A stretch of 64,000 bases of DNA from Squalus acanthias (GCA_030390025.1 CM059449.1:14012001-14076000); one strand, 5' to 3'. Counted from the stretch's first letter, positions 10,476 to 60,767 are shown. Translations and numbers: made by a program. Notes: generated by a model not told the origin, from the letters alone.

Positions 10476-10533
10476 ATGCTGTTCACTCAACAGCTCGCCG
10501 TAATGCAGCTGATGCTATTTGCAACATGCACGG
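10476..10533 (+). CDS. NCR3: Gene 1 leader exon MLFTQQLAVMQLMLFATCT (in-frame upstream ATG at 10386)
   Basis: Signal-peptide-like, ends ACG G|gtgagt (phase 1), matching the V exon acceptor. Confidence 0.7.
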
Positions 10534-13500
10534 GTGAGTTAATTGGTTTATGACCGTTACGGATAACGTCCACAGGCTGGAGAACAGGGTCGATTTAAAT
10601 TCTACCTTTTGCAGAAACTGGACTTTTTTTTCAGCTTCGAATTGGAAATTATTTAATTTCAGGTAACCACAAAAAACGCTAATGGGTGCTATCTGTTAAC
10701 ATGTTTTATTTCTGCAATTTACTTACAATTGTCGCACTAACTATGAAATAGCGGTGCAACTGTGCTAAGCACCGGTCCATCCTCCTCTAAGCACAGTTAC
10801 AGTATGTTCTAGACTTGAGCGCATATGGGGCAAAATTTACACCAGGTTCTTCCGATCTCCCGCCGTAGCTTTAGAATTATAGAATCATATAATGGTTACA
10901 GCACAGAAGGAGGCCATTCGGCCCATCGAGCCCGTGCCGGCTCTCTGCAAGAGCACTTCAGCTAGTCCCACTCTCCCGCCCTTTCCCCGTAGCCCTGCAT
11001 TTGTTTTCCTTCAGGTAATTATCCAATTCGCTTTTTAAAGCCACGACTGAGTCTGCCTCCACCTCCCTTTCAGGCAGTGCATTCCAGATCATAACCACTC
11101 GCTGCCTAAAAAAATGTTTTCCTCCCTACTTTAGTTCTTTTGCCAATCACTTTAAATCTGTGTCCTCTGGTTCTCGACCCTTCCGCCAACGGGAACAGTT
11201 TTTCTTTATCTGCTCTGCCTCGACCCCTCATGAATTTGAACAGCTCTATCAAATCTCCTCTCATCCTTCTCTGCTCGAAGGAGAACAACCCCAGCTTCTC
11301 CAGTCTATCCACGTAACTGAAGTCCCTCGTCCCTGGAACCATTTTTGCAAATCTATTCTGCACCCTCTGTAAGGCCTTCACAACCTTCCCGAAGTGCGGT
11401 GCCCAGAATTGGACACAATACTCCAGTTGTGGCCGAATCAGTGTTTTATAAAGGTTCATCATAACTTCCTTGCTTTTGTACTCTATGCCTCTACTTATGA
11501 AGCCCAGGATCCCGCATGCTTTTTTAACCGCTGTCTTAACCTGCCCTGCCACCTTCAATGCTGGTGGAAGATCGGCTGTATTTATTTTCCCGCCGAAGTT
11601 ACGACGGGAGATGGAGAGATTCCAGGCGAAACTCTTGATTCGATTTAAGCCGTCTGTGGAAGGTTTCTGGCAGCAAGCGACTGCTCCACCTGCTTTCATA
11701 ACAATAGTGGCTGCTCTCCAGAAAGTAACTGAAAGCACTTTGATATGTTTCGACGATATGATAGGGCGCTGTACAAATTCAGCTTTTTTTTCTTTATCAA
11801 TGCGAGTGTGATTATTTTTGCATAATCGGATTTTTTATTCATTCACGGGATGTGGGCGGCGCTGACACTTGTGTGGCGCGAATGTTACTTGCCACTTGAT
11901 CAGCCCAAGCCTGGAATATGCCCGGGTCTTGCTGCACGCGGGCAGGAGCTGCTTCATTATCTGGGGAGCTGCGAATAGAACTGAACACCGTGCAATCAAC
12001 AGTCAACATCCCCACAATATGAGTCTTTTCCTTGAGATGCTCCACAAAATGTTCTCGCCAAACCAGGATCTTTCTCCCGATCCGGTTGACTGCATCCGAA
12101 TAACGGCCACTTCTCAGTCTCAGAACAAGTCGTTCATCTTCCGCGTTGTTCAGACTCCAAATTAAAATAATAATGTTGTACTACTTCCTGTAGCTATCTC
12201 ACTGTTTGTCCCCCGTTTATCTCCCCTTTCCTTCCCTCTGCCTTGTTGCTTCTCTCCTGCTATCCCTTTCTCAATACCACCCTCTGATCCTCAACCACCT
12301 TCTCTCATTGGCGTCTCAGCATTCGCTCTGATTCCTTTTTCTCGGCCCTTCACTCTGCTTCTGTCCATTGCTCTTTTCTGTTCTCCTGTCTGTCTGACTC
12401 ACAATCTCTCTCCTTGTCCCGCTTTGGTAGAAAGCAACTGCAAATGGAAAACAGCTGCTGAATGAATGAGGAGAATGAAACCATGAATGTCATATGTCTC
12501 AGGTAATCGATCTGCCATCGCATTGTATTAGTTCAGCTCTTGATTTTTTGCGGCTGGCGTGTATTCCCCGCTGCTGAGTGACGCTGGGCAAGTGGTAGTG
12601 GAGGCAGCGAGGCGGAGCAGGACAACCAAGCATTAGCCTGTCTTTCCCTTTCCGACCCTGGGTGACTTGCTATATATTTGTAGCACTTTCTGTGTGTGTA
12701 TATAGTGTGCTTCACGGTTCCAGTGTTCGCTGCTTTACTTTTTATCTCTGTTTCTATATCATGTGGAATGAGAATGACCTTTACCGACAAAAATGCCGAT
12801 CAATGTTAGACAGGTGTGGATTTTAGTACTTATCCGCTTTACCTTTCAGCAGCTGGGACGACGAATTTCACCGTTTACCAGCTCCCTCCCTTTATAAATG
12901 CGACAGAGGGGGAGTCGGTTACACTGAACTGTGCCGTGGCTTCTGAACGAAACCTATCTCCGATCGGCTCAGCTCAATGGACACGGGGTCAACCAAATGG
13001 GTACAAACTGGACGATAGCCCGTTTTACAGCGGACGGCTGCAGAAAGCAGACAGCGAGTCGTTTGCCAAAAATAGAATTTTCATTAAAATCTCCAACTTG
13101 ACTGAGAAAGACTCAGACACCTATTACTGCCGGATAACCTTAATGGGATTAAGAGCGACAGACGGAAATGGCACCAAATTGGAAGTGAGACGTAAGTAGC
13201 AACTTAAAAAATAATCGTGTACAAAGCACGTGTTCTAATATTCTATTCACACAGAGCAGGGCGATCCTTGGATCAATTTCAGGACTGTGATTGGCTAGCT
13301 GACCCCAGCATACTGGACACCGGGGATGGGGAATACCATCTCACTCGCTCCTCCTCCTCATTCACAAATCTGTTCCTCCTGGAAGTTGCTTGTTCTGCTG
13401 TGGATATCAGGGGATGAAATTGGACGCAAAACAGGCGGATTTGCGTCGGCTGCCCGTTGTCCCGCTTGCCGGATATTCCGTTCCATTCAAGTCAGTGGAA

Positions 13501-16500
13501 ATGAATATGGGGCTGAGCCTATAACAGGTGTCCGATGCGATACCCCCTGTCTTGCCATCCCACCCATGCCCAAGGTGTCTACTAATTTTTTATTTGTTCC
13601 GGGATGTGGGCCAACATTTATTGCCCATCCCCAGTTGCCCTTGAGAAGGTGGTGGTGAGCCACCTTCTTGAACCGCTGCAGTCCGCGTGGTGAAGGCCCT
13701 CCCACAGTGCTCTTAGGGAGGGAGTTCCAGAATTTTGACCCAGCGACGATGAAGGAATGGCTGATATATTTCCAAGTCAGGAAGGTGTGTGTGACTTGCA
13801 GGGGAACTTGGAGGTGGTGGTGTTCCCATGCGCCTGCTGCCCTTGTCCCTCTAGGTGGTAGAGGTTGCGGGTTTGGGAGGTGCTGCCGAAGAAGCCTTGG
13901 CTGAGCAGGGTTGTGATACATAGAAACATAGAAACATAGAAGATAGGAGCAGGAGTAGGCCATTCGGCCCCTCGGGCCTGCTCTGCCATTTAATGAGATC
14001 ATGGCTGATCATCCGTATTCAGTACCCTGTCCCTGCTTTTTCCCCATATCCCTTGGTCCCTTTAGCCTTAAGAAATATGTCTAACTCCTTTTTGAATATA
14101 TTTAATGAATTGGCCTCAACTGCTTTCTGTGGTAGAGAATTCCACAGGTTCACCACTCTCTGGGTGAAGAAATTCCTCCTCATCCCAGTCCTAAATGGCT
14201 TACCCCTTATCCTTAGACTGTGAACCCTGGTTCTGGACTCCCCCGCCATCGGGAACATCCTTCCTGTATCTAGTCTGTCTAGTCCTGTTAGAATTCTATA
14301 AGTTTCAATGAGATCCCCTCTCATTCTTCTAAACTCTAGCAAATACAAGCCCAATCATCCTAATCTCTCTTCATACGTCATTCCTGCCATCCCAGGTATC
14401 AGTCTGGTGATGCCGCTTAGAGTCAAATAGCCAAACAACGTTGAAGAATCACCACTAAAATGATGGGCCAAAAATTCGGCACTTGCCGGGTGAGTTCGCA
14501 CTGTGTACTCACCTGTAAGGCCACCTGAAGTGCCGGTTTCCTGCATGCACTGCGCATGTGCGGGAAACCGGAACTTCTGGTCTTGTGAAGGGAGGGGTTG
14601 AGAGGTGAACCGCGTGCGCGGGAGAGGCTGTGTGCACGCAGCAAACATTAAAAAATTTTCAGGTTTCTCTGGGAAGGTAAGTATGGAAGAAGCTGCGCTT
14701 TTAAAAAGAAGGCGCAAGACCCATTTTTAACAAGGTAAGTGGTTAATTAATTAGAATTTAAAACATTTTTCAACAGGTTTATCTTTTTTAGATACTTTAA
14801 AGAAAGGTAAGTTTATTTTTAGCACTGTTAAAAAGTGTTTTAATTTTTGCAAAAATTAAAATTTTTGTTTAAAGTCGTTAATTTATTTAACTTATAGTTA
14901 TTTTAAAAATGTGATGGTTTTTTTAAAAAATGTATTTGAAGTTTAGGTGTTGTTTTGGGGCCGATTTCAATTCATAGATTTGACAGGTCTTCCTGTCAAA
15001 TCTATGAATGAAAGATGGTCTGCTGCCATTGGCTCTCCATGGCCCACGTGATCCCAGGGGATGCATCGCACTAACTACACCCCTGGGATGCACAAGCACT
15101 GCGCGCCGGCAGCTGCAGGAGGCCCAGGAGCTGAAGTCCCCGTGGGCCCAGAGGTCAACGGCAGGCGTGGTAGGTAGGTGTGCACGCGATCCTTGCACCT
15201 GCGGGAAGCCAGGGAGCCGAATTTCTGGCCCGATATATCAGGAGCTCCGTGCAATGAGAAGATGGCACAAAATTAATAGAGGCTGAGGGAAGCTTCTTGA
15301 CATTGTCCTTATTATCATTGAAGTGCCAATAGTAGCACCATAGCATAGCAATTATTCTCTTTCCATTGTAATACTGTTTTTTTACAATCATGCTATTTGT
15401 TTTAATGCAAGCAAAATCGTTTTTCCTCAGCGTCTTCAGATTTAGATTTAATAATACTGACTTCAACTCCTTATTTCAGGCGGAAAGCAGACTGAAAAGA
15501 GAGAGGGTATTAAGCTGAGACTTGTACTAGGAGGTGCGCTGGTGTTGCTGGCTATAACCATCATAATTCTTACGATTCGACTGATTTGGCAAAACAAAGG
15601 TCTGTATCTTTACAAAACACACTGGTAACCTGTTTAAATATTACACTTGCGCTATAGTGCGGAGGAATTACGCTGGCCACTATGGGTAGCAATATAGTGA
15701 ATGCTTTCATGGAGCGAGTCAACAATTCCAGTGCAATCGGAATCGGGTTATTCAGAAATAATAAAAGGAGGAAATACCCATAATCCATTGTGATACCGAT
15801 GCACATATTGTCCAGAATAACTTCCCGTCCTCTCTATGCATTTATGTATCATAGGTCAATTCTGTGACATTTTAATAACAAATAGCTTCACAAAGTCATA
15901 ATTTTACAACAATAATATTAATTTTCTTCTTTTCCTTTCAGTTATCCTGAGGCTGAAAAGGTACGGGGAATGTTAACTCCTATAGAATTGATGATCATTC
16001 AGAACATAATGTGCATAATTTTAAATTGAAATATCATCTCGCTTATTACAGAAATCACAGCGGAGCCAATCCAATATATGGTAAGGGAGCTTTAATTGCA
16101 TTAATTTACATTGATCATTGTTGCTGGCTAATTAAAACAAACTAAATATAAAAATACATTTGCACATTATTTTATTCATAATCATTTGATTTCCAGTCAG
16201 GTTCTACTGATATGTGTGTGTGTGTGTGTGTGTGTGTGCCACCATCTACAAGGCACAAGTCAGGAGTGTGATGAAATACTCTCCACTTGCCTGGATGAGT
16301 GCAGCTCCAACAACACTCAAGAAGCTCGACACCATCCAGGACAAAGCAGCCCGCTTGATTGGCACCCCACTCACAACCTTAAACATTCACTCCATCCACC
16401 ACCGGCATACCGTGGCTGCAGTGTGTACCATCGACAAGATGCACTGCAGCAACTCGCCAAGGCTTCTTTGACAGCACCTCCCAAACCCGCGACCTCTACC

Positions 16501-19500
16501 ACTTAGAAGGACAAAGGCAGCAGGTGCATGGGAACACCACCACCTCCAAGTTCCCCTCCAAGTCACACACCATCCTTCATCGTCGCTGGGTCAAAATCCT
16601 GGAACTCCCTCTCCAACAGCACTGTGGGAGCACCTTCACCACAAGGACTGCAGTGGTTCAAGAAGGCGGCTCACCACCAACTTCTCAAGGGCAATTAGGG
16701 ATGGGCAATAAATGCTGGCCCTGCGAGCGATGCCCACATCCCATAAAACGAATTTAAAAAAATGTTTGTATGTGTGTGTATGTGTGTATGCATGTGAGTA
16801 TGTATGTTTGTAAATGTGTGTAAGTGTTTATGTATGTGCATGTGTGTGTATGTGTTGCATTGTGTAATTCTGACACATTCTCTATCATTGTCTCTCCTCT
16901 CATTTTCACAGCAACAGCCGATCTACAGCCAACAACACAAGTAAGAACTATCAGATGATGAGATGTTTTATATATGCAATGACAGATGGTTCAGTGTACA
17001 ATAAGGCTATGGTAATTGGCTGCGGTAACATAGTGTTTATGTTACTGGACTAGTAATCCAGTCGGCACTGGACTAATGAGACATAAAATCCCACCATGGC
17101 AGTTGAGGAAATTGAATTTAAAATCATTAAATAAATCTGGAATTTAAAAAAAGAAAGACGTTAGTATCAGTCATGGTGACCATGAAAAATACTGGATTGT
17201 CATAAAAACCCATTTGGTTCACTAATGTCCTTTAGGGAAGGACGTCTGGCCCATGTGACTCCAGACCCACAGCAATATGGTTGACTCTTAACTGCCCTCT
17301 GAGGTGACCTTGCAAGCTATTCAGTTTTGTTCAAAAAGGTGGCTCACCACCACCTTCTCGAGGGCAATTGGGGATGGACAATAAATTCTGGCCTTGCCAG
17401 CGATGTCCACATCCCATGAATGAAAAAAAAATGAATTCGCTATCTACGGCGATGGAATTGTTCTGTTCTCTACGTATTTTCAATATCTTATATGTGCTTG
17501 TTAAGGTTTTCCCCTGTTACGTATGTTTTAGGGATGTGCTTATAATTGCCAGTAAAATGAAACCAGAGGTGTAATGAGCATTAAAAGTAGTGTTTAAAGG
17601 GGATGCGGTGCCACCAGCATTATGACCTGAATTCAACTCCAGCCCAGACTGATGGGCTGAAAGGCTCCTCTCTCTGTTGGCTGTAAGGGTTCATAACTTC
17701 CCAAAGGACATTGAATCACAGCACCAAAACCGTCCCAAAAAAACCACACTTTGGTATTAAATTGGTAATCTAAGTCACAGAGGTCATAAGGTGCGAGAGT
17801 AGAAAAGTTCAGAGTTGGAGTGTAAGGGTCTTTTTTTCTGAGCTTTGTGTGTAGAGCGTTGTACAAGCAGCGTAGAGGAAAATTCACCTTGCAGCCTATT
17901 ATACTATAGTTGACACAGAAATACTGGATACCCACAATGGATAGCATTTGGTGCCCTTCTTCCCAGTACAATCGTCACAATATCTCATTCCAGTTGTTTC
18001 CCCGAGTATGAGCCCCATCTTCGCTTCTTTATGTCCAAGGGGCACTCAACCGGATAAGCCACCCATTCCCAGATCTGGCTTGCCACATTAATCTCTTCCA
18101 GGCTTCGCTTTCCTCTGCAGAAGCCACCCGCTACTCTCGGATCATCCTGGAAGGTAGCGAAAACTGCAGGCTCCTTTTCTCTACTACCTTAAGTGGGAGA
18201 CCAGATGATTGGGAAAGTTTTAAAAACCTGCAAAGGATGACTAAAAAAATTAAAAAAGAGAGAGAAGATGAATTATGAGAGAAAACTGGCAAGAAACATT
18301 AAAACAGATAGTAAGAGCTTCTACAGGTATATAAAAAGGAAGAGAGTAGCTAAAGTAAACATTGGTCCCTTAGAGGATGAGACTGGGGAATTAATAATGG
18401 GGAACGGGGAAATGGCAGAGACTCTGAACAAATATTTTGTATCTGTCTTCATGGTAGAAAACACTTACAACATCCCAAAAATGGATAATCAAGGTGCCAC
18501 AGGGAGGGGGGAACTAAAGACAATCACTATCACTAGGGAAATAGTACTTGGTAAAATAATGGGACTAAAAGACGACAAGTCCCCTGGATCAGATGGTCTG
18601 CATCCCAGGGTCTTAAAAGAAGTGGCTGCAGAGATAATGGATGCATTGGTTGCAATATACCAAAATTCCCAGGACTCTGGAGAGGTCCCAGTGGATTGGA
18701 AAACCGCAAATGTAACACCCCTATTTAAGAAAGGAGGGAGACAGAAAGCAGGAAACTATAGACCAGTTAGCCTAACATCTGTCATTGGGAAAATGCCGGA
18801 GTCCTGCGTTAAGGAAGCAGTAGCAGGGCATTTAGAAAATCATAATGCAATCAGGCAGAGTCAGCATGGTTTTATGAAAGGGAAATCATGTTTAACAAAT
18901 TTGCTGGAGTTCTTTGAGGATGTAACGAGCAGGGTGGACAAAGGTGAACCAGTAGATGTGGTGTATTTGGATTTCCAGAAAGCATTCGATAAGGTGCCAC
19001 ATAAAAGGTTACTGCATAAGATAAGAGCTCACAGAATTGGGGGTAATATATTAGCATGGATAGAGAATTGGCTAACTAACAGAAAGCAGAGAGTCGGGAT
19101 AAATGGGTCATTTTCCGGTTGACAAATGGTAATGAGTGGGGTGCCACAGGGATCATTGCTGGGGCCTCAACTATTTACAATCTACATTAATAACTTGAAT
19201 GAAGGGACCGAGTGTAATGTAGCCAAGTTTGCAGATGATACAAAGATGGGTGGGAAAGCAAGTTGTGCAGAGGACTCAAAGAATCTGCAAAGGGATATAG
19301 ACAGGCTAAATGAGTGGGCAAACATTTGGCAGATGGAGTATAATGTGGGAAAGTGTGAGGTTATACACTTTGGCAGCAAAAATAACAAAGCAAACTATTA
19401 TTTAAATGGAGAGAGATGACAAAATGCTACAGTTCAGAGGGACCTGGGGGTCCTTGTGCAAGAAACACAAAAAGTTAGCATGCAGGTATAACAAGTAATC

Positions 19501-21491
19501 AAAAAGGCAAATGGAATGTTGGCCTTTATTTCAAGGGGGTTGGAGTATAAAAGCAGGGAAGTCCTGCTACAACTGTACAGGGTATTGGTGAGACCACACC
19601 TTGAGTACTGCGTACAGTTTTGGTCTCCTTATTTAAGGAAGGATTTACTTGCATTGGAGGCAGTTCAGAGAGGATTCACTAGGTTAATTCCAGAGATGAG
19701 GAGGTTGACTTATGAGGAAAGGTTGAGCAGGCTGGGCCTATACTCATTGGAATTTAGAAGAATGAGAGGTGATCTTATTGAAACATATAAGATACTGAGG
19801 GGGCTCAGAGGATGTTTCCCCTCGTGGGGAAATCTAGAACTCGGGGGCACAGTTTTAGAATAAAGGGTCACCCTTTTAGAACTGAGATGAGGAGGAATTT
19901 CTTCTCTCAGAGGGTCGTAAATCTGTGGAATTCACTGCTCCAGAGAGCTGTGGAGATTGGGTCATTAAATACATTTAACGTGGAGATAGACAGATTTTTG
20001 CAAGATAAGGGAGTGAAGGGTTATGAGAAGCGGGCGGGGAAGTGGCTTTGAGGCCAGGATCAGCCATGATCTTATTGAATGGCGGAGCAGGCTCGAGGGG
20101 CCAAGTGGCCTATTCCAGCTCCTATTTCTTATGTTTTTATGTTCTTAAACAACTTTGACCACCGCCTCCTCTCTCATCTCTAACAACCAGTGCGAGGAAC
20201 TCACGCATTTCTTCCTCTCGAAGATAGCGACCATCTGTTCAGCTGCCGCACTGCTTATGTCTTCCCCTTGTCCACTAAGCCAAATGTCCCCCCGTCCTGT
20301 CGCCATCATTGCCCTGAAACCTGGCTTCTCACTAGTTTCTGCCCTTTTCCCCAAACCCCCTCCAAATTTATCTCATCAGAATTTATTGCCCATTCCTAAT
20401 TGCCCTTGAGAAGGTGGTGGTGAGCTGCTGCCTTCCTGAACTTCTGCAGTCCATGGTACTCCCACAGTGCTGTTAGGTAGGGAGTTCCAGGGTTTTGGCC
20501 CAGTGATGATGAAGGAACGGTGATATATTTCCAAGTCAGGATGGTGTGAGACTTGGAGGGGAACTTGGAGGTGGTGCTGTTCCCACGTGCCTACTGCCCT
20601 TGTCACGGGTTTGGGAGATGCTGTTGAAGAAGCCTTGGTGAGTTGCTGCAGTGCACCTTTGATCTGTCTGTCCTATCCAGGTAATGTCCCATCTTGAACC
20701 TTCCTTTCCCCTCCAAGTTCCTTAGAGTGCTGTCACCTCCCAGATATGTACCCATTTCCCTTCAGATCAGGTTTCTGCCTCTGCCACAACACTGAAACAA
20801 CCCTGACCAAAGTCACAAGAGGCATTCTCTGCTACTGTGGCCATGGTATGTTATCCATCCTCGTTCTGCTTGACCTCTCTGTAAACTTTGAAATGTCAAC
20901 CACACGATACTCCTCCAATGTCTCTTATCTATTGCTCAACTCCATGGCACTGCTCTTGCTTAGCTGTACAATAATGCATCAATTTTGACCAGAGCATCTC
21001 CAGCAATGGCATCTTTTTCCACCCACAACCGTTAGCTTGGGAGTCTCCAAAGGATCCATCCTTTGCTCCCTCGTCTATATCCTTCTCCGAGTTGGCATCA
21101 TCGAATCTATGAATTCAGCTTCCATATTTATGCCAATTACAGCTCTACTCATCCACCACCTATCTCGACCCCTCCTTATGCTGTCAGACTGTATTTCCAA
21201 TATCTAGTTTTGACTCTGTGTCCTTTTTCTGATTACTCATCGCTCAAGTGCCTTGGAACGTTTGTCTGCTTTAAGGACACAATAAATATGCAAATTGGTG
21301 GTGTTGTATTTATATGCATTTGGACTTCAAACTCATTTTAATCCAATTGCGATAATTGTTAGGTACATTCCAATCGTGGCAGTGATGAGGCAGTTTCCCT
21401 GCATTACACCAAAGTGAACACAAAGCAAGAGGGGAAGTCGAGGAGAATGGACATGCAGGTACATCATGTGGAGTACGCCACCATCACATGA
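10476..21491 (+). CDS. NCR3: NKp30/NCR3-family single VJ-type IgV receptor with ITIM-bearing tail (gene 1; exons 10476-10533, 12850-13191, 15480-15599, 15942-15960, 16052-16080, 16912(or 16918)-16940, 21363-21491; ~241 aa)
   Basis: All junctions are GT-AG with compatible phases (1,1,1,2,1,0); the summed CDS is 726 nt with no stop. The V domain resembles human NKp30 by eye (IGS.W.R, GRL, S..F, YCR..+.GL...GNGT+L.V). The symbol denotes family; orthology not tested. Confidence 0.8.
10873..11558 (-). mobile_element. CR1 LINE 3' fragment in gene 1 intron 1
   Basis: LYKTLIRPQLEYCVQFWAP...RTRGH. Confidence 0.85.
12850..13191 (+). CDS. NCR3: Gene 1 IgV (VJ-type) exon
   Basis: ctttcag| acceptor, AGA C|gtaagt donor; TLNC...QW...DSDTYYC...GNGTKLEV canonical V-set motifs. 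Confidence 0.93.
13918..14410 (-). mobile_element. CR1 LINE 3' fragment
   Basis: RRMRGDLIETY...FFTQRVVNLWNSLP; (CATAGAAA)n tail. Confidence 0.85.
14465..15231. mobile_element. PIF/Harbinger-type MITE, family A, copy 1 (gene 1 intron 2)
   Basis: TIR GGGCCAAAAATTCGGC...GCCGAATTTCTGGCCC, 3-bp TSD GAT, non-coding, internal palindromes. Confidence 0.8.
15480..15599 (+). CDS. NCR3: Gene 1 stalk/transmembrane exon (R)GKQTEKREGIKLRLVLGGALVLLAITIIILTIRLIWQNK
   Basis: ttatttcag| acceptor, AAA G|gtctgt donor, 120 nt, phase 1-1, 19-aa hydrophobic core. Confidence 0.85.
15942..16940 (+). CDS. NCR3: Gene 1 cytoplasmic micro-exons: 15942-15960 (VILRLK), 16052-16080 (RNHSGANPIY), 16912/16918-16940 ([AT]ADLQPTTQ)
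   Basis: Each has a pyrimidine-rich AG acceptor and a gtacgg/gtaagg/gtaaga donor; phases chain 1-2-1-0. Confidence 0.72.
18192..20146 (+). mobile_element. CR1 LINE ORF2 (RT) ~2-kb 5'-truncated copy with stops, inserted in an older L2
   Basis: KSPG.DG.HPRVLKE, NYRPVSLTS, YLDFQKAFDKVPH, GVPQGS, KFADDTK. Confidence 0.92.
21363..21491 (+). CDS. NCR3: Gene 1 terminal exon VHSNRGSDEAVSLHYTKVNTKQEGKSRRMDMQVHHVEYATIT*
   Basis: Phase-0 acceptor (weak pyrimidine tract), two ITIM-like motifs LHYTKV and VEYATI, TGA at 21489-21491. Confidence 0.75.
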   Translation, partial: VHSNRGSDEAVSLHYTKVNTKQEGKSRRMDMQVHHVEYATIT

Positions 21492-22889
21492 AGCTGTGAG
21501 AAGAAATCTGAAAGACCTCAAAACCCTGATCCTACATATGCCACTAAGAGAACAAGAGCAATTTTAAACAATATCCAGCACACCGACCACCTTACTCTTT
21601 ATTACTCTGCCAACAAGGTTGCGACATGTTAAATGTGAATGTGTGTAAAACTGCAGCTGTTCCTAATTTCCCAGTTGTCGAATATTCTGCTGTTTCAGTT
21701 AAGCACCCTGTAGGGGCTATGTGTCTCTTAGCAACTCTTAGAAAATTGAATCTTCTTTATCAGTAACACAAAATATGTTTTCCAGCCTGACAAACTGAAG
21801 AAGGTGGGAAAAGAGGTCCTTCTGGGTCACTGTGTGTAGCGACAGTGAAATTGAAAATTGCATTACGTGGGTATTTCTTGTGAAATTATAAAAGCGTTCT
21901 TAAAAATGTGTTTGCTGATTTCCTAGAAATAGGAATTAAGAAATATTCTCAGTGTGTTTACAATGTCGATAACAGATGGCTGTCAGGAAAAAATGTATCC
22001 CAAAATGTAAATATGCTACTTACTATTAACTGGTTCCAGTTTGTTATGAATATTAAAATACTTGATCTTCTTAGCTCTGTGTGCCAGATTTATCATAGCT
22101 CTTCGCCCAAGTGTGCGTCACAAATATTTCAATTTTGCACTTGACATTTTCGCAGATTCAATGTCACCAGTCACTTCTTTAAGTGGACCGAGGGTCCCCG
22201 TATGATTTGGAGTGCACCGTTTGCTGTCCAGTATCAAAGTAACAGCAGTCGGCCATTCAGCCCTTCGAGCCTGTTCCGCCATTCAATGAGATCATGGCTG
22301 ATCTGTATCTTAACTCCATCCACCTGCCTTTGCTCCATGTCTCTTAATACCCTTGGCTAGCAAAGATCTGTCGATCCTAAACTTAAAAATTTTAATTGAG
22401 CTAGTATCTATTGCTGTTTGTGGGAGAGAGTTCCTCACTTCCTACCACCCTTTGTGTGAAGAAGTGTTTCCGAACTTCTCTCCTCAATGAGAGAATTTAA
22501 TGTTACATCCCTTGTCCTAGACTCCCCCAACAGCGTAAAATGTTTCTCTCTATCTACTCTATCAATTGCTTTCAAAATCCTAAAACCCTCAATCAAATCA
22601 CCTCTTAACCTTCTAGATTCCAGTGAATACAAGACTAGTTTATGCAATCTCTCTGCGTAAGTTAACTCTTGGATTCTGGTAACATTCTGTTAAATCTGCG
22701 TTGCACTCCTAAGGCCAATATATACTTTCTAATGTACGGGGCCAAGAATTGTACACAGTACTCCAGATGAAGTCTAACCAGTTTATATAGCTGTAGATAA
22801 ACCTCTTCCACTTTAAATTCTAGCCCTCTAGTTATTAAGTTAAATTAATTTATGTAGTTAAACGATATTGTAGCAGGACTGTAACAGAT

Positions 22890-24415
22890 TACAACTACTG
22901 CAACTTGTATTTACATAACATGATTAACATAGTAAAAGGTCCCAAGGTGCTTCACAGGGGTGTTATTAAACAAAATTTGTCTCCAAGCCACATAAGGAGA
23001 TATTAGGACAGGTGAACAAAAGTTTTGTCAAAGAAGTAGTTTTTAAGGAGCATCTTAAAGGAGGAGAGAGAGGTAGAGAGGTGGAGAGGCTTATGGAAGG
23101 AATTCCAGTGTTTGGGCCCTAGGCAGCTGAAGGCAGGTCCACCAATGGTGGAGCGATTAAAATCGGGGAGGTACAAGAGTCCAGAAATGGATCAGCATGG
23201 AGATCTCGGAGGGATGTAGGGCTCAAGGAGGTTACAGAGATAGGGAGCGGGCGAGGGCATGGAGGGATTTAAAAACAAGGATCCGAATTTTAAAATAGAG
23301 GCATTGCCGGATGGGGAGCCAATGTCAGTCAGCGAGCACTGTGGGGGTGAAGGGCGAATGGGACTTGGTGTGAGTTCGGATACGGGCAGCAGAGTTTCGG
23401 ATTAGCTTACATTTATGGAGGGTGGAAGATGGGAAGCTACCCAGGAGATCATTAAAGTAGTCAAGTCTGGAGGTAACAAAGACATAGATGATGGTTTCAG
23501 CAGCAGATGGGCTGAGGCAGGGCAGATACGGGTGATGTTACAGAGGTGGAAGTGGGCGGCCTTAGTGATTGAGTAGATATGGGGTCGGAAGCTCAGTTCA
23601 GTGTCAAATAGGACACCAAGGTTTGAAACAGTCTGGTTCAGCCTCAGACAGTGGACAGGCACAGGGATGGAGTTGGTAGCTAGGGAACAGAATTTGTGGC
23701 GGGGACCAAAGGCAATGGCTTCGGGCTTCCCAACATTTAGTTGGAGGAAGTATCTGCTCATCCAGTACTGGATGTTGGACAAACAACATAACAAATCCGA
23801 GGCAGTGGAAAGGTCAAGAGTGGTGGTGGCGAGGTAGAGATTGGTATCATCAGTGTACATATGGAACCTGACGTTGTGTTTTCGAGGAGGGACAGCAAGT
23901 AGATGAGAAATATGAGGGGGGCGAAGGATAGAACCTTGCAAGACTCCAGAGGTAATGGCGCGGGAGTGTGAAGAGAAGCCATTGCAGGTGGTTCTCTGGC
24001 TATGGCTGGAAAGATAGGAATGGAACCAGGCGAGGGCAGTCCCACTCAGCTGGACGATGGAGGAGAGGCGTTGGAGGAGGATGGTGTGGTCAACCGTGTC
24101 AAAGGCTGCAGACAGGTTCAGGAGGATGAGGAGGGACAGTTTACTTTTGTCACAGTCGCATAGGATGTCATTTGTGACTTTGATAAGGGCCGGTTCAATG
24201 CTGTGGCATGGGCGGAAACATGACTGGAGAGATTGAAACATGGAGCTGCAGCAAAGATGGGCACAAATTTAGGAGGTGACAACACGTTCAAGGTCCTTGC
24301 AGAGCAAGGGGACTTTGGAGAAGGGGCAGTTGTTTACAGGGCCAAGGGTGGGTTTTGTGAGGAGGGGCTGATGACGGCAGATTTGAAGGGGAGGGAGACA
24401 GTACCTGAGCAGAGA
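22890..24415 (-). mobile_element. L2 LINE ORF2 3' fragment
   Basis: LLNLSAAFDTVDHTILLQRL...FHMYTDDT; L2-type tail. Confidence 0.88.
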
Positions 24416-24997
24416 GAAGACAAGAGATGTTAGTTACCTTTGTACCACAGCCCCTTTCCCCCCACTGCGCCCTGACAACAGAATGTGTTCAGATTGGACT
24501 AGTACTGTTGAACTGCTGAAAGCTTTCCTCATTTATTAATTGAAATTTGAGCTGACCGGACTTTGTCTTCTTTTACTAATAAAAATTGATTATCCCCTAT
24601 TCTTAAGTAGAAACCATTTAGGCTGAGTGTTTTCTCAGAAGAGACAGGAGTGCTCGCATTTGCTTTCGGAGGCAACTGCCATGGCTGAACCACCACCCTC
24701 CTCCCCCCTCCCCCACACACCCCTCTCCCCACCCAATCTGTCTTGGAATCTGAGAAAGGACATTGAATGGGTTAAAACCGAGCCTTCGTGAGGCTAAACC
24801 TTACTCCACCCTGTGGCCATATTGTGAATAAAATGTATACAAGTTCTTCTGATAACAAAACTTGAGGATCCTGCTATAATGGTACTAATGTAGATTTATA
24901 AACGAGTGCCGTTGGTAAATATCCACTCAAATTAAGTCTTCAAACTTAAAATATAATAAATCGTGATGTCTTTACATTCAACACGACAATTTCGCAA

Positions 24998-45351: not shown

Positions 45352-45357
45352 TTTATT
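45352..45357 (-). terminator. Candidate polyadenylation signal of gene 2
   Basis: AATAAA on the minus strand ~120 nt after the stop codon. Confidence 0.4.
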
Positions 45358-45478: not shown

Positions 45479-45604
45479 TTAGGGCAGCATCTCCTGGGAC
45501 GAACGAACGTGCTCATATTCCGCGTCCATCCTGTTGCGCTGTTTCGGTTTTCTTTTCCTCTTCTTCCCCTCTGGCCCGGAGCTCGAAGCCCCGCCCTCTC
45601 CGTG
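45479..45604 (-). CDS. Gene 2 terminal exon HGEGGASSSGPEGKKRKRKPKQRNRMDAEYEHVRSSQEMLP*
   Basis: ttttcaaag| acceptor, phase 0; EGK..R.RMD...EY resembles the gene 1 last exon; minus-strand AATAAA at 45352-45357 and 45202-45207. Confidence 0.65.
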   Translation of the reverse strand, partial: HGEGGASSSGPEGKKRKRKPKQRNRMDAEYEHVRSSQEMLP

Positions 45605-49200: not shown

Positions 49201-52200
49201 GATAAAAGTGTGTACGTTGTTTCTGGAAGTTTTTCATCAGTTTTTTTATCAATTCTTAACTAAACAAATTGATGGGTACATTAAAAGGTAGAAAATTATA
49301 GCTTACCTTGTGCTTCCCTTTCTGCTTTAATGGTATAGATTCTATTGGAAAGAAATAACATTTTAGTTGGCAAACAAATCTAAGTCATAGAGTCATAGAG
49401 GCACCGAAGGAGGCCATTCGGCCCATCGAGTCCGTGCCGGCTCTCTGTAGAGCAATCCAGTCAGTCCCATTTCCTTGCTCTATCCCCGTAGCCCTGCAAG
49501 TTTATTTCCCTCAAGTGCCTATCCAGTCTCCCCTTGAAAACATTGAGTGTCTCCACTTCCACCACTTCCGTCAGCAGCGAGTTCCAGGTCATCGCCACTC
49601 ACTGCGTAAAAAAGTTTTTCCTCACATCCCCCCTGTATCTCTTGCCCAAAAACCTTAAATCTGTGTCCCCTAGTCCTTGTACCATCAACTAGTGATAACA
49701 GCCTTTCCCCGTCTAGCCTATCCAAACCCCTCATAATCTTGTACACCTCTATCAAATCGCCCCTCAACCTCCTTTGCTCTAATGAAAACAAATCCAGCTT
49801 CTCTAACCTGTCCTTGTAGCTAAGATCCCCCATCCCCGGAACCGTTCTGGTAAATCTCCTCTGCACCCTCTCAAGTGCCTTCACATCCTTCCTAAACTGT
49901 GGTGACCAGAACTGGACGCAATACTCCAGTTGTGGCCTAACCAGCGCTGTATAAAGGTTCAGCATAACTTCTCTACTTTTGTACTCAATGCCTCTATTTA
50001 TGAAGCCCAAGATCCCATATGCTTTGTTAACCACTCTCTCAATATGTCCTGCCACCTTCAGGGACCTATGCACTTTAACTCCCAGGTCCCTCTGTCCTGC
50101 ACACTCTTTAAAACTGTGCCATTAATTGAATATTGCCTCTCCCTGTTCCTTCTGCCAAAATGCATCACCTCACACTTCTCTGTATTAAATTCCATCTGCC
50201 ACTTGTCTGCCCATTCTGCTAGCCTTTCTATGTCCTGTTGCAGTCGATTGGTATCATCCATTTAGCAAGAGGTTTAAAATGCAAAAAGTCACACATAGCC
50301 AGCTTGTCTGGCTGAATGTATGTTTCAGCCCTCAATTGAAATGCAATGAATTCTACAGTTTTCACATTGGCAAAATGCTTAATTAGGACTGGAGAATTTT
50401 AGCTCTGAGGAAAGATTGGATAGGCTGGGTTTTAACAGAGGAGGCTGAGGGGAGACCTTATTGAGGTGTATAAAATTATGAGGGCCCTAGATAGAGTGGA
50501 TAGGAAGGAACTGTTTCCCTTAGCAGAGGGGTCAACAACCAGGGGGCACAGATTTAAAGTAATTTGTAGGAGGTTTAGAGGGGATTTGAGGAGAAATCTC
50601 TTCACCCAGAGGGTGGTGGGGGTCTGGAACTCACTGCCTGAAAGGGTGGTAGAGGCAGAAACCCTCATCACATTTAAAAATGTGAGAAGTCGCACAACAC
50701 CAGGTTATAGTCCAACAGCTTTATTTGAAATCACAAGCTTCCGGAGCGCTGCTCCTTCGTCACCTGACGAAGGAGCAGCGCTCCGAAAGCTTGTGATTTC
50801 AAATAAACCTGTTGGACTATAACCTGGTGTTGTGCGAATTCTCACATTTGTCCACCCCAGTCCAACACCGGCATCTCCACATCACATTTAAAAAGTGCTT
50901 GGATGTGCACTTGAAGTGCCGTAACCTACAGGGCTACGGACCAAAAGCTGGAAAGTGGGATTAGGGCGGATAGCTCTTTGTCGGCCGGCGCGGACAAGAT
51001 GGGCCGAAATGGCCTCCTTCTGTGCTGTAAATTTCTATGATTCTTCTAGGACAACACAAACGTGATGCTATTTTTGTTCAATCGGCATCATTTTATGGAA
51101 AAACATTTTTTGTTCCTGCTTTGCTAACTTGTCTTACAGCGTTGGAAGGGGGAGCAGCGTTTAAAGCCGGGTGACTATGTTTATAAAAGGTATCCCAATA
51201 CAAATTTGGGAATGGGTTGGATTGTTGTCTGAATGTTCAGCAAATGGGCTTTTTAATATTTTTTTTAAATAGACAAGGATATAGCGTCTTTGTAAGATAC
51301 GTAAATCGCTCTGACTTCACAGCATATTTTTCGGTTATTGAAATGTAAATTTATTTTCTGCAACAAAAGAAAATGCAGAAATTACAAAGTTGCCCCAGCT
51401 GCATCAAAAAAAAATCAAAGGTTAAATATTTCCAGTGCAACTCTTAATCAGCCTCATTTAAAAGAGTACGTTTTCTGTCTCTTTCAGATGATGCTTGACC
51501 TGCTGTGCGATTGCAACATTCTGACAGGTCTGGACAGACTAGATGCAGGAAGGATGTTCCCGATGGTCGGGGAGTCCAGAACCAGGGGTCACAGTCTAAG
51601 GATAAGGGGTAAGCCATTTAGGACAGAAATGAGGAAGAATTTCTTCACCCAGAGAGTAGTGAACCTGTGGAATTCTCTAACACAGAAGGTAGTTGAGGCC
51701 AAGTCATTAAATATATTCAAGAATGAGTTAGATATATTTCTTAAAGCTAAAGGGAACAAGGGATATGGGGAGAAGGCAGGTACAGGGTACTGAGTTTGGA
51801 TGATCAGCCATGATCTCATCGAATGGCGGAGCAGGCTCGAGGGGCCGAATGGCCTACTCCTGCTCCTATCTTCTATGTTTCTATGTTTGTCAGTTTTTAG
51901 GAACCTAGGAACAGGAGGAGGCCATTCAGCCCCTCGGGCCTGTTCCGCCATTCAATGAGATCGTGGCTGATCTGTATCTCAACTCCGTCTACCCGCCTTG
52001 GTTCCGTAACCCTTAATACCCTTGCCTAACAAAAAGCGATCATCGCAGTTTTGAAATTTTCAATTGACCCCCCCACCCCTCCAACCACAACTGCTTTTTT
52101 GGGGGGGGGGGGGGGGGGGGAAGAGAGTTCCAGATTTCCACTACCCTTTGTGTGAAGAAGTGCTTCCTGACATCAACGCTGAACGGCCGAGCTCTAATTT

Positions 52201-55200: not shown

Positions 55201-58200
55201 ACACTGGCTGAGACCTAACCAGTGATTTATAAAGGTTCAGCATTTTGTCCTTGTTTTTATATTCTGTGCCTCTACTTGTAAAGCCAAGGATCACGTATGC
55301 TATTTAACAGCTCAATCAGCTTCTCCTGCCGCCTCAGAATTTTGTGTATGTGAGCAGCCCCCCGCCTTCCCCCCCGGTCTCTCTGCTCCTGCACCCCCTT
55401 TAAAATTGTACCATTTTGTTTGTATTAAATATAGCTCCTATATTCAAAAAGGGTGACAGAGCCATGCATCATAATTACAGAGTCATTCGCCTGAACTCAA
55501 TGATTGGCAAACGAGCTGAATCAATAATCAGCAACACGATGGAAGATTAAAAAACTGACGGGGAGGGAAGCCATATCATGTTGCATATCTTGACTTCAAA
55601 AGGTCCTTCATAATGTATGGCACGGAGGACTCCTTTCTACGTTATGGTGGGTGTAAACCAAGGGTAAGACATGGGCGTGCCTAAGGGAACTGAACTGAGC
55701 ATAATCCTAAGAGACACTCGGTCGCAACTGAGGAAAGTACTGAGTGGTGCGACAGGGACCCCTCTTATCTTTGGTATTCATACACGACCTAGCCTCAATG
55801 CAAAGTAGTTGCTTCAGAGATGACACCAAGCTCGGGGGGGGATGGTGGTGGGGGGAGGGGGGGGTGGGGTAGCGGGGGCTGAGTTTGAAGGGGGCATCGC
55901 GTGTGTTCAGAGAAGACAGCCAAAATATTATGGCGAGAGCTGGAGAGCGCTGATCAGTGGCAAGATAAGTTCAGTAAATATTAGTGCAAGGCATATTGCA
56001 AGTAAAAGTAGGAGGCCCATTGACTTTAAAAGTGGAATATCATAGAATCATAGAAGATAGGAGCAGGAGTAGGCCATTCGGCCCCTCTAGCCTGCTCCGC
56101 CATTCAATGCGATCATGGCTGATCATCTAAATTCAGTACCCTGTCCCTGCTTTCTCCCCATATTCCTTGATCCCTTTAGCCTTAAGAAATATATCCAACT
56201 CCTTCTTGAATATATTTAATGAATTGGCCTCTATTGCCTTCTGTGGCAGAGAATTCCACAGGTTCACCACTCTCTGGGTGAAGAAATTCCTCCTCATTTC
56301 TGTCCTAAATGGCTTACCCCTTATCCTTAGACTGTGACCCCTGGTTCTGGACTCCCCAACCATCGGGAACATCCTTCCTGCATCTAGTTTGTCCTGTTCT
56401 GTCAGAATTTTATAAGTTTCAATGAGATCCCCTCTCATTCTTCTAAACTCCAGTGAGTACAAGCCCAATCGACCCAATCTCTCTTCATACGTCATTCCTG
56501 CCATCCCAGGTATCAGCCTTGTGAATCTTCGCTGAACTCCCTCCATGGCAAGAACATCCTTCCTCAGATAAGGTGACCAAAACTGCACACAGTACTCAAG
56601 GTGTGGTCTCACCAAGGCCCTGTACAACTGCAGCAAGACATCCTTGTTCCTGTACTCAAACCCTCTCATAGAACTTCTCATGGGGTGAATTGAAAGAGAA
56701 AGAGTGCTAGGACACTTGACGCACTTCAGCAATAACGAGATGCTGAAGACATTAAAATTGGTGTTCCGAGATGATGAGCTCGAATGGGCCAAAGGGGCTT
56801 CTTCATTCAAACCGATTTGTGACCATATGAATTCCCTTTTGCAATTTGGAAATCAGTTACCTGTTGACTTTTCAGTGATGTACGCAACAAACTGTCTATG
56901 GAAGAAGAAAACACATTGTTAGCAATTAGATTCAGCAAAGAGGCTACAGGGCGAGTTCAATGCAGGTAGGATACAGGGACAAGGGAAAACGAGTGGGACG
57001 GTGCAGATTAGGAGGAACGAGAGGGGTAATGTAAATGAAAGCAATATATCAACTTACCTCTGAAGAGCAATGCAAGCTGCAAAAAAAAGAACAAAACACA
57101 TTAGATGATTATATCTGAATCCGGGATGATGATTTCGTCTGCAGTTTCAAACCCTGATAAGTTATAGCTATGGCTTTTCGATGGAAGTTTAATTTGCCAA
57201 AATGTGTGGCATGCAACAAAATAATCAGTAATAGATATGAAAATGTCATATACTGGCAAACATGCCAGTGTCCTAAAGAATGACTCTTGCACCAGTCTTC
57301 ATACTTTCGAATTTGAGGCTGAAACATTTATTATTAATAACCCATTCCACCTATATAGACATCTTAGAACCCACCCCAACCCCCACCCCACAGCTGATTG
57401 GATCCTAGATGAACAGCAAAGCAACAGGGCCCCTCCTGCCAACTCAAGCGCCCACATGGGTAACGCGTTGCCCAAACCTCGCTGACATATACTGGAGGTA
57501 TTTCGCTTCTGCACGCGCCGCCCCACCTCCATTTTTTTTCTGCCCATTAAAGTGTCAAGCACTATTTCCTACCCAAAGTGTCCTCTAGTCAAGGACTTGG
57601 TGGTCGCTGACAACTAACAGAGCTACCACAATGAACATAACTATACCATTCTACGTGTAGGTATCTGCAAGCACCATCTAATATAGTGCAACCCAAGAAA
57701 ATAGGCAAACATGGCTCAATTCAATGAACTAAACTTCCTAACCCATTCCCTGAGTGATTACCACTTTTTAACGTTCCCTTGACTTGGTTACCACTACCTA
57801 AAATTGGCGATGGATAGCAAAACTCATCATAATCTTAAACGTGTTTGGGAATGATCTTTGATACTTTATACCTGAACTCATGATCATGTATATCTTGTCA
57901 CTGCTCATAATAAATTCTTTCTATTCATTCTTGGAATGTGAGTGTCACTGGCAAGGCCAGAATTTATTGCCCATCCCTAGTTGCCCTGGAGATGGTGGTC
58001 GGCCATCTGCATGAACCGCTGCAGTCCGTGTGGTGAAGGTACTCCCACAGTGCTGTTAGGGAGGGAGTTCCAGGATTTTGGCCCAGCGACGATGAAGGAA
58101 CGGCAATATATATGTGAGACTTAGAGGGGACCCTGGAGGTGGGGGTGTTCCCATGCGCCTGCTGCCCTTGTCCTTCTAGGTGGTGGAGGTCACGGGTTTG

Positions 58201-60767
58201 GGAGGTGCTGCCGTAGAAGCCTTGGCGAGTTGCTGCAGTGCATCTTGTAGATGGTACACACTGCAGCCACAGTGCGCCGGTGGTGGAGGGAGTGGACACC
58301 ATTGAACATGATTTTTTCAAGGTCATTTTAGTCACTGTTGAGGTTCGGCAAGCAATGAAAAATGTAATAATATATAATAATAAATAGCTTCTATGCTTTT
58401 ATTGAGAGATCCAGGTCATGACACCACTACCGTTGAAAAAGGTGTGTGGGGGGGGAGCGAGGGGGTTAAATAACGAAATAAAGTTATGAAAGACAGGAGA
58501 TTGCAGACGGAAAGGAAGACTAAATGAGCTAGAGTCCATTGGTTTTGAAGTCCTCAGAAATAAAACAAGTTAGAATAGGACAAGGTAGAAGAAAACTTCA
58601 TTTGAAAGCTGTGAGGCTGCCGAGAGGATGAAAGGCGTGCATTGAAAGTGGGACAGTCGAGCAATCGCCACAGTAGTAGCAGTAATAATAGATTAAATAT
58701 ATCAAAGTACCTTTCTTTCGTTGAGTAAGACGTACGGACACTATAATTAGTGAAATGCAAAGCACTGCTGTCACTCCGGCCGACACTGCAATGAATATGA
58801 TGTTGATGGAACCGCACTGAACACTTTGAGAAGCACCTAAAATGATAATCGGAAGAAAAGTCAGACAAGCATCTGTGCCTGGGCAAATGAATATCTGTTC
58901 TTTCTGTGCACTTGCCATAATAATGATAGCCGGGGGGGGGCGGGGAGGGGGGGCTGTAAGTGGGTCTTTCTTGGTGTATTTCTGCTGATTTACTACAGCA
59001 CATTCTAACAGAGACACATACGGACACATAGAAACATTTTCACACAAACACACTCACTCACACGCACTATCGCACACAGACACCCATACAGACACACACA
59101 ATCAAAATTAACGCAATGTTCTTACGTGTTACGATAATGACCGTCCCTCCACCTCTTGTTAGCGTGCCCACATTATTCATTTGGCAATAATAAGTTCCAG
59201 AATCACATTCTGTAAGGTTCTTGATCCGCAGGGATGTTATCTTCCCATCTTGCGTCCCAGAATTTCCGAGGCGTTTAATATGTACTCTTCCGCCGTACAT
59301 TGGATTGCTTTCTGATATGTCCAGGTCATATTTTAGCCATGTGCATATTTTAGGTCCAGTGAAATCAACGGTGCAATTCATCGTCACAGTCTGGCCTTCA
59401 ACCAGCTTCTGGAAAACAGGTACCTGCTTTATAGGGTCTTTTTTTGAGTGAACTCCTGTTAGAAACAAAGCACATTAAAGCTTCCAGTAAGTCAGCACTC
59501 GTTACGCCGCTTCCATATATTAATTATCATCACTTTTTTTCTTTATTTAACACGTCTCCTTTCATGTTTCTTCCCTTAACCTTCCTCTCCTGAAGGTACC
59601 GAGTCAAACTGGAGTCCGGTATCTATGGCCCCGGCAGCTCTCCCTCTCCGTGCCCGACACCGGTTTCGCTCTTGGTGTTTTTGGACGAGACTGCTGGTTT
59701 TCAAATGTTGTATTTATTTTTTTGGTGGGGCGGGTACAGTGGGGGAGCGGTCCTGAAACTTGAAACGTACACCTGGACACTCCCGTTATAACTTCAACCT
59801 CTCTGTTGGGCAGTAGAGCAAACACGGGGCAGTCTCACATCAGCCGCCCATTGCCCGATATTGAGCCCCACTGACCCATGCAATACCGCGCGATTCGCGC
59901 TGCTTCTGATGACCTCCCAGCCTCAGTGCAATTTGCGAACCCCAGTTTGATTTTTTTCCCCCCCATTTATTCTCGGGCTGTGGGCGTCGCTGGCAAGGCC
60001 GGCATTTATTGCCCATCCCTGGTTGCCCCGTGAGAAGGTGGTGGTGGCCAAATCCTCTTGAACCAATCTTTGTACTTGGACAGTAAGGGTGGGCAAACAC
60101 CGTTGAGTTTCACAATCTGGTCCCTTATACTCGCGCCCACATTTCCGAGGGAATAAAGCACAATCGCATAAGTGATTTCCCCTCCCTTGGCCCAGAGAGG
60201 AAGAACATAAGAAATAGGAGCAGGAGTCGGCCATTTTGGCCCCTTCGAGCCTGCTCCGCCATTCAACAAGATCATGGCTGATCTTCTACCTCATCTCCAC
60301 TTTCCCGCACTATCCCCATATCCCTTGATTCCCTTAATATTCAAAAATCTATCGATCTCTTCTTGAATATACTCAACTACTGAGCCTCCACAGCCCTCTG
60401 GGGTAGAGGTTAATCATAGTACCAACTTGCACCCGACTGGGACCCACCAACAGAGCGGACCATTGACTCAACCTGGGACACTCCTGCTCGGTAATACTCA
60501 TTACCAAAGCACGTGTATCCAACGAGCCTTTCAATGGGGTGTTTGGGACTCTGTTAACAAGTTATCATTTCCCCCTGCTTTTCCTAAGGATTACATATGC
60601 GATTGCAAACCTTTATGTAGCTCAGTTCGGAATATGCCATCCATCGCATGTCTCTTTCCATCCAATTAACAGATATCTTTGAATACAAGCACTGGCTTAC
60701 CTGTGGTAAAGAGACACGACATTAGAATAAAGGCAGGGGTCGAACACAACTTCATTGTCATTTCCAT
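45479..60767 (-). CDS. Divergent NCR3-like/IgSF single-V receptor (gene 2; exons 60701-60767, 59126-59455, 58711-58836, 57058-57076, 56861-56895, 49307-49341 and/or 48700-48737, 45479-45604; ~245 aa)
   Basis: Leader, V, TM and 19-nt exon with the same phases as gene 1; 3' exon usage is ambiguous; an assembly gap lies in the last intron. Confidence 0.7.
45772..46255. repeat. (GATA/GACA)n microsatellite spanning an assembly gap (N 45904-46163)
   Basis: Directly visible. Confidence 0.95.
46760..48230 (+). mobile_element. Two adjacent CR1 3' fragments; the second (47528-48230) ends in an expanded (TTCTTATG)n tail
   Basis: ORF translations; octamer tandem repeat 48165-48230. Confidence 0.85.
48700..49341 (-). 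CDS. Gene 2 candidate micro-exons 49307-49341 (35 nt) and 48700-48737 (38 nt)
   Basis: ttccaatag|...AAG|gtaagc and ttctgtcag|...AAT|gtgagt; open in compatible frames. Confidence 0.55.
48850..49040. mobile_element. Short fold-back MITE (older family; related copies ~13410-13575, ~38755-38933, ~44965-45140, ~62020-62155, and ~10826-11640 split by CR1)
   Basis: Imperfect inverted termini GGGG(G)..AAATT..., central CCATTGACTTCAATGG-like palindrome. Confidence 0.55.
50681..50884 (+). mobile_element. Penelope-like inverted terminal repeat insertion in CR1; hammerhead at 50760-50796
   Basis: ~80-bp inverted repeat centred near 50762; CATCACATTTAAAAA duplicated at both junctions. Confidence 0.75.
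53956..54731. mobile_element. Harbinger-type MITE family A-related, copy 3, inserted in a CR1 fragment
   Basis: TIR GGGCCAGAAATTCGGG...CCCGAATTTCTGGGCC; TSD AAT splitting CR1 GGACACAAT|ACTCCAG. Confidence 0.8.
56861..57076 (-). CDS. Gene 2 micro-exons 57058-57076 (ACIALQ, 19 nt) and 56861-56895 (RQFVAYITEKST, 35 nt)
   Basis: Strong poly-T acceptors and gtaagt/gtaact donors; same size and phase as the gene 1 19-nt exon, also followed by a short intron. Confidence 0.75.
58711..58836 (-). CDS. Gene 2 stalk/TM exon (R)ASQSVQCGSINIIFIAVSAGVTAVLCISLIIVSVRLTQRKK
   Basis: cattttag| acceptor, AAA G|gtactt donor, 126 nt phase 1-1, uncharged TM then RL..RKK stop-transfer. Confidence 0.85.
59126..59455 (-). 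CDS. Gene 2 IgV (VJ-type) exon
   Basis: tttctaacag| acceptor, ACA C|gtaaga donor; TMNC...CTW...GRV...SLRIKNL..DSGTYYC...GGGTVIIV. Confidence 0.92.
60701..60767 (-). CDS. Gene 2 leader exon MEMTMKLCSTPAFILMSCLFTT
   Basis: Signal-peptide-like; ACA G|gtaagc phase-1 donor. Confidence 0.8.

Follow-up and report, generated by a model that had tools for sequence, protein, structure and literature searches.

Do two receptor genes that lie tail to tail on one shark chromosome form a paired-receptor system? The question is raised by a stretch of 64,000 nucleotides from Squalus acanthias (GCA_030390025.1, CM059449.1:14012001-14076000; hereafter the window), in which an earlier note, made from the sequence, had described two genes for single-V-domain receptors as a candidate system of this kind. 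We call them gene 1 (plus strand) and gene 2 (minus strand). Each is the orthologue of a nurse shark gene already named NCR3 (NKp30 family), and both belong to a known cluster, so the locus is not a new paired-receptor system. At a probability of roughly three in four, we read it as two NCR3 orthologues, gene 1 inhibitory and gene 2 adaptor-free, that are old paralogues with separate ligands.

Two orthologues of nurse shark NCR3 genes

The V domain of gene 1 is 66% identical to that of the nurse shark NCR3 protein QTT61901.1. At full length, gene 1 compared with QTT61901.1 and gene 2 compared with QTT61902.1, also a nurse shark NCR3, each gave 55.6% identity over 241 aligned residues, and the crosswise identities were 33% and 30%. 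Matches to the V domain of gene 2 came from genes without a name in white, basking and zebra shark, catshark, sawfish and skate. A joint-profile search gave 20 proteins, one of which, QTT61902.1, falls in the gene 2 family, and in the tree the gene 1 and gene 2 families each form a single branch (support 99/96). The gain is one of annotation: the orthology ties unnamed RefSeq genes of several sharks, a sawfish and a skate to two nurse shark NCR3 genes.

The nurse shark NCR3 family was reportedly described by Kinlein et al. in 2021 (Immunogenetics 73:333). PMC12227049 has eight accessions, MT914154-914161, for nurse shark NCR3, and we infer that QTT61901.1 and QTT61902.1 belong to this set. Both the shark NCR3 family and its linkage to the major histocompatibility complex (MHC) are already in print (PMC12227049, PMC10751288); we also drew on PMC10450919 and PMC12272517. 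No account of the gene 1/gene 2 pair was found among the listed papers on shark NCR3/NKp30, with Kinlein 2021 and Ohta & Flajnik 2015 outside the comparison.

Regarding the genomic surroundings, we took synteny from the orthologues in the gene tables of the PMC10751288 supplement, the window's own flanks lying outside the data. In the tables of all three species (catshark, white shark and sawfish) the gene 2 orthologue stands beside AIF1 in MHC class III, the linkage that the earlier note had suspected, and no other gene of the NCR3 cluster lies closer to AIF1-PRRC2A; DDAH2 is at the opposite side. The catshark gene 1 orthologue is also in class III, beside the AIF1 cluster: LOC119976781 (+, gene 1 orthologue) and LOC119976033 (-, gene 2 orthologue) are adjacent and convergent, 25.6 kb apart, and are followed by AIF1 and PRRC2. 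In catshark the opposite strand carries an unlabelled gene, LOC119976035, that overlaps with the gene 2 orthologue at the 5' end of the latter. The white shark order is PRRC2A, AIF1, the gene 2 orthologue (LOC121291731, labelled NCR3 in the supplement) and then, after 183 kb, the following gene, which has the same strand; in this table the NCR3 label is given to five genes. In sawfish the gene 2 orthologue is directed at AIF1 with NCR3-labelled genes behind it, an orientation unlike that of the window pair. Both catshark genes and sawfish LOC127586087 lack an NCR3 label in these tables, and 'NCR3' occurs nowhere in the main text of PMC10751288. By name, orthology and position, both window genes are members of the shark NCR3 family; the likeness of gene 2 to human NKp30 is weak.

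The convergent arrangement, for which other sharks, rays and chimaeras were to be searched, appears in one of the three tables: catshark has it, and the annotations of sawfish and white shark do not. Our searches found no gene 1 copy in the latter two species, where it may be unannotated. The tail-to-tail layout is a local orientation common to some sharks and no fixed unit, and since the cluster contains several more NCR3 genes, gene 1 and gene 2 are not an exclusive couple.

The window gives exact exon maps for both genes (Table 1). Each has seven coding exons, with products of 241 aa (gene 1) and 245 aa (gene 2); the 12 introns are all GT..AG and the reading frames are open. The exon end phases, 1,1,1,2,1,0, are identical in the two genes. 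From the transmembrane exon onwards, the lengths in gene 1/gene 2 are 120/126, 19/19, 29/35, 29/35 and, for the last coding part, 129/126 nt, and the intron after the 19-nt exon measures 91/162 nt. In both genes the V and J parts lie in one open exon ending in a G-x-G-T strand. The two models, with canonical splice sites, reproduce the leader-V-transmembrane-19-nt plan, phases and lengths claimed in the earlier note, as well as the tail-to-tail arrangement, with 23,987 nt from stop to stop. Phases 1-1-1 are generic among Ig-family receptors; on a rough estimate, the remaining three phases and the equal 19 nt would agree by chance roughly once in several hundred cases. A second possible acceptor of the gene 1 V exon lies 3 nt on (12850-12853).

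Table 1. Positions of the coding exons and intervening features, counted from the first letter of the window
Feature	Position	Strand	Evidence
Gene 1 exon 1, leader, 58 nt, phase 1	10476..10533	+	orthologue leaders align
Gene 1 exon 2, single-exon VJ-type IgV	12850..13191	+	66% to QTT61901.1; best four PDB matches of family profile are human NKp30
Gene 1 exon 3, 120 nt, stalk plus transmembrane helix; Arg at its edge not conserved	15480..15599	+	
Gene 1 exon 4, 19 nt, phase 2	15942..15960	+	mean 89% identity to 6 orthologues
Gene 1 exon 5, 29 nt, phase 1	16052..16080	+	gene model, orthologue alignment
Gene 1 exon 6, 29 nt, phase 0	16912..16940	+	gene model, tblastn, orthologue alignment
Gene 1 exon 7, coding part, two inhibitory motifs and stop	21363..21491	+	distal EYATI in 6/6 orthologues
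Stretch between stops, 23,987 nt, without V exon	21492..45478	.	tblastn, list of open reading frames
Gene 2 exon 7, coding part: basic stretch, Tyr (EYEHV), stop	45479..45604	-	mean 53% identity, 11 orthologues
260-N gap in gene 2 intron 6, 4-nt microsatellite on each side	45904..46163	.	
Gene 2 exon 6, 35 nt, phase 0	49307..49341	-	gene model, tblastn, orthologue alignment
Gene 2 exon 5, 35 nt, phase 1, nearly invariant segment	56861..56895	-	run contigs; mean 93% identity, 11 orthologues
Gene 2 exon 4, 19 nt, phase 2, invariant Cys	57058..57076	-	run contigs; mean 98% identity; Cys 11/11
Gene 2 exon 3, 126 nt, Cys-containing stalk plus uncharged transmembrane helix	58711..58836	-	run contigs; stalk Cys 10/11
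Gene 2 exon 2, single-exon VJ-type IgV, extra invariant Cys before F strand	59126..59455	-	run contigs; Cys106 11/11
Gene 2 exon 1, leader, 67 nt, phase 1	60701..60767	-	run contigs, tblastn

Splicing of gene 2 was followed in four of the 12 listed sequencing runs, none of which is on record as RNA; the four were taken as RNA by guess and mapped to 56800-60800 only. In contigs from three of the four (X1 from study P1, X2 and X6 from study P2), introns 1 and 2 are spliced out at the predicted ends, the skipped stretches being 1,245 and 289 nt. The bin depth over exons 4 and 5 in X1 and X6 equals the contig depth multiplied by 10+9 nt and by 35 nt, and this pins down the exon lengths at 19 and 35 nt; run X9 showed no coverage over the gene 2 exons. 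A basking shark isoform is in the frame expected from skipping of the 19-nt exon (21/30 residues identical), so this exon is present in basking shark too. Base 59323, in the V exon, differs in the X1 and X2 contigs and not in X6; by our reading the difference changes a residue, and it may be an allele.

There are two V-domain exons in the window, one per gene, and tblastn found no third. The stretch 5241-5575 was considered as a decayed V exon and rejected (tblastn E of at least 0.055, no V motif in the three plus frames). Between the stops, we read the listed long open reading frames as remnants of long interspersed nuclear elements (LINEs). The bamboo shark model P0003 carries an N-terminal extension that matches LINE-like DNA at 18955-19095 and 33260-33385 and is therefore probably an annotation artefact.

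Tails and predicted signalling

Gene 1 has two strict immunoreceptor tyrosine-based inhibitory motifs (ITIMs), LHYTKV and VEYATI, compared with one in nurse shark QTT61901.1. At least one strict ITIM is present in 5/6 aligned orthologues; the distal EYATI is kept in all six and the proximal Tyr in five. The Arg at the edge of the transmembrane segment sits ahead of the hydrophobic core and is absent from all five orthologues that have the transmembrane exon (one of the six aligned isoforms is without it), and the family has no conserved transmembrane charge. The ITIMs and the Arg that had been pointed out are both present in gene 1, and it is the conservation of the Arg that failed. ITIMs recruit the phosphatases SHP-1 and SHP-2, and the two in gene 1 would do so and thereby inhibit. 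Such motifs mark inhibitory receptors (PMC3533184), and judging from them gene 1 is probably one. The family also retains NKp30-like C-strand and FG-loop sequence, which makes a B7-H6-like ligand plausible.

The tail of gene 2 looks different. It has about 70 residues, with a basic stretch and a terminal Tyr whose +3 residue varies, and no ITIM, no ITAM (immunoreceptor tyrosine-based activation motif) or hemITAM (its single-tyrosine form) was found in it. The uncharged transmembrane core, the lack of a canonical ITIM and the EYEHV in the last exon are as the earlier note described them. Judged by residue identity, selection on gene 2 is strongest at the membrane side and not in the V domain: residues 175-191, encoded by the 19-nt and 35-nt exons (56861-57076, -), are identical at 16-17 of 17 positions in 11/11 orthologues including sawfish, with 44-53% for the V domain. 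This count excludes P0026 and P0173, two gene 2 records without these exons or the V domain. The stalk Cys occurs in 10/11 orthologues and the membrane-proximal Cys in all 11. In the V domain, the extra Cys at aa 106 is found in 11/11 orthologues and the Cys at aa 60 in none.

Two candidate readings of this tail were rejected. A hemITAM of the CLEC-2 type is a YxxL with acidic residues at -2, -3 and -4 (PMC3576117); in gene 2 the +3 position is Val and one of those three positions is acidic, and there is no Leu at +3 in the orthologue columns. An amphipathic or coiled-coil segment did not hold either, with a hydrophobic moment of 0.18 compared with 0.24 in shuffles.

For the history of the locus we propose that the ancestor would have been a lone receptor gene of the single-exon VJ type, located in MHC class III, that the split into gene 1 and gene 2 would precede the divergence of sharks and rays, and that both would have been retained as separate receptors. 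It is likely that the two bind different ligands. Gene 2 would need no ITAM adaptor for signalling and would rely on its nearly invariant segment next to the membrane. We put forward more tentatively, at somewhat under even odds, that it is a disulphide-linked dimer whose segment docks a conserved partner; the inner Cys would probably be a lipid anchor.

CD28 and CTLA-4 are adjacent single-V receptors of low identity, and a pair of opposing receptors modelled on them is the alternative that survives best, at perhaps one chance in eight. The two genes, about 35% identical, would have a B7-family ligand in common; gene 1 would inhibit, and gene 2 would act through its own tail as an adaptor-free co-stimulator with a 17-residue docking segment, in an MHC-encoded pair older than the shark/ray split. 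The genes are neighbours both in the window (24.0 kb apart) and in catshark (25.6 kb), their orthologues are consecutive protein accessions on one chromosome in Mustelus and lie on a chromosome of the same length in Heterodontus and Heptranchias, the tails look opposite, gene 2 has a stalk Cys, and NKp30 has been described as a CD28-family member (PMC6514059). However, the families have no motif in common at the start of the C strand or in the FG loop, the residue at Tyr+3 of gene 2 varies, no convergent partner is annotated in the white shark or sawfish tables, and other genes of the NCR3 cluster are equally possible partners. If the opposing pair were real, the NKp30 line closest to the human receptor would have been originally inhibitory. 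If the gene 2 tail binds a signalling partner, or if a B7-family ligand is shared, this would bear on the origins of activating NKp30 and of checkpoint-type receptors, which would then lie in a single-exon VJ gene of the early MHC.

Probable kinship of gene 1 and gene 2

The V domains of the two genes are identical at 36/97 positions (37%), compared with 37/100 between the nurse shark NCR3 V domains; they are as divergent as had been claimed. Evidence for kinship comes from elsewhere in the proteins. Profiles of the transmembrane segment plus tail align over the transmembrane part and the 19-nt exon, with a probability of 67% and a score reached by 0/100 shuffles. Run over a set of 181 proteins, a hidden Markov model (HMM) of the same region from gene 1 reached 27 bits with gene 2 members and no more than 4.7 bits with unrelated proteins. 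In addition, the fused model P0045 (480 aa) has a gene-1-like V domain, transmembrane segment and ITIM tail followed by a second V-transmembrane unit on the same strand, whose V domain is about equally close to gene 1 and gene 2 (79 and 77 bits). This suggests head-to-tail neighbours of the same cluster elsewhere. P0045 gave no match to solved structures at E<=1e-9; its second unit has the extra V-domain Cys and the stalk Cys of gene 2. We consider it very probable that gene 1 and gene 2 are old paralogues of common descent, which the V-domain tree does not show.

Other signs of kinship fared worse. The last-exon motif EGK..R.RMD...EY, said to be shared, is literal in neither protein and the spacing differs. 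RMD occurs in 0/9 gene 1 and 1/13 gene 2 family records and EGK in 2/9 and 10/13, some at other positions, and the likeness of the last exons is marginal (pairwise p=0.019; profile score reached by 3/100 column shuffles). Transmembrane segments ending in RL are no common mark, the Arg being kept in 2/5 gene 1 and 5/11 gene 2 orthologues. As for the ancient inverted duplication followed by divergence, old relatives with differing tails are what we find; the single inverted duplication was not upheld, the V tree not resolving the two as sisters. The listed blastn matches between the two gene regions are intronic repeats, none of them overlapping a gene 1 exon. One repeat of about 790 nt with an AT-rich centre, 79% alike, lies at about 14460-15240 and 53950-54740, in one intron of each gene; similar copies are visible near 27.5-28.2 kb and 40.0-40.7 kb. 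It is a dispersed element and not gene homology.

Several results weigh against our overall reading. The profile of the gene 1 family has human NKp30 as its best four of six PDB matches at E<=1e-8 (E 1.5e-11 to 4e-11), but NKp30 is absent from the best 60 of 265 PDB matches of the gene 2 profile, in which shark VNAR, CD79b and TCR-alpha rank above it, and from the best 60 of 302 in a second comparison of gene 2 with solved structures. An NCR3-like cluster ranked first in the Atlas structure search, but its TM value (structural similarity) was 0.40; the Atlas feature searches gave generic V-set clusters only. The V trees leave the base unresolved and do not join the two families, and in an approximately unbiased (AU) test a clade uniting both families with P0045 was disfavoured at p=0.047, on a quick tree of 7 of 12 gene 2 rows and 12 mostly unnamed outgroup domains. 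The cytoplasmic exons alone gave no significant alignment (9/100 shuffles). The 181-protein control set was mostly chosen by likeness to the gene 2 V domain, and transmembrane hydrophobicity contributes to the HMM scores. On the signalling side, the conserved segment of gene 2 is not amphipathic, and its Tyr is Phe in 1/11 orthologues.

The PDB ranking, the trees with their AU result, and one white shark isoform of the gene 2 family that is automatically named CD8 beta-like would also fit gene 2 being a separate single-V co-receptor (CD79-, CD8- or CD28-like), named NCR3 for its position and a loose similarity. We regard this as unlikely, at slightly longer odds than the opposing pair: gene 2 has the 19-nt exon and the phases of gene 1, its transmembrane region matches the gene 1 profile, the V domain in P0045 bridges the two, and the gene 2 tail has no ITAM and no CxC motif.

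Paired receptors and other known systems

Paired receptors have very similar ectodomains, and their activating member has a short tail and a charged transmembrane segment (PMC3533184, Kuroki et al. 2012). A classical system of the KIR, SIRP or PILR type, born of one inverted duplication, would account for clustered genes, one of them with ITIMs, on a common exon plan. Yet the V domains are only a little over one third identical, here and in nurse shark, gene 2 has a long tail and no transmembrane charge, contrary to that definition, the ITIM gene holds the sole Arg, which its orthologues do not keep, and both families are old single branches without recent look-alike copies. With ectodomain likeness and a short-tailed, charged activating member both missing, the candidate paired-receptor system falls, and we think this origin very improbable. 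A misjoin of the assembly at the 260-N gap between gene 2 exons 6 and 7, which the earlier note had named as what might undo the arrangement, is the least credible explanation by far, since the gap lies within the last intron of gene 2, exons from both of its sides are joined in one protein in 11/11 orthologues, the same type of microsatellite flanks it on both sides, and order, strands and spacing are the same in catshark.

The two NCR3 orthologues can be set beside three known systems. Like paired receptors, they are clustered on one chromosome and one member, gene 1, has ITIM motifs; unlike them, they combine 37% identical ectodomains with the lack of a short-tailed, charged member. Gene 2 resembles CD28 and CTLA-4 in its stalk Cys, basic stretch and Tyr, and differs in having no YxxM and another locus, with no ligand-loop motif shared between gene 1 and gene 2. 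Regarding human NKp30 (NCR3), it stands beside AIF1 in a class III gene table (PMC1654159) and activates through a transmembrane Arg with CD3-zeta/FcR-gamma (PMC6514059). From this receptor, which has 4 exons, the window genes differ in their 7 coding exons and long tails and in lacking a conserved transmembrane charge, gene 2 being without the transmembrane Arg. Like it, they are type I receptors with one IgV domain, and human NKp30 is the best structural-library match of the gene 1 family.

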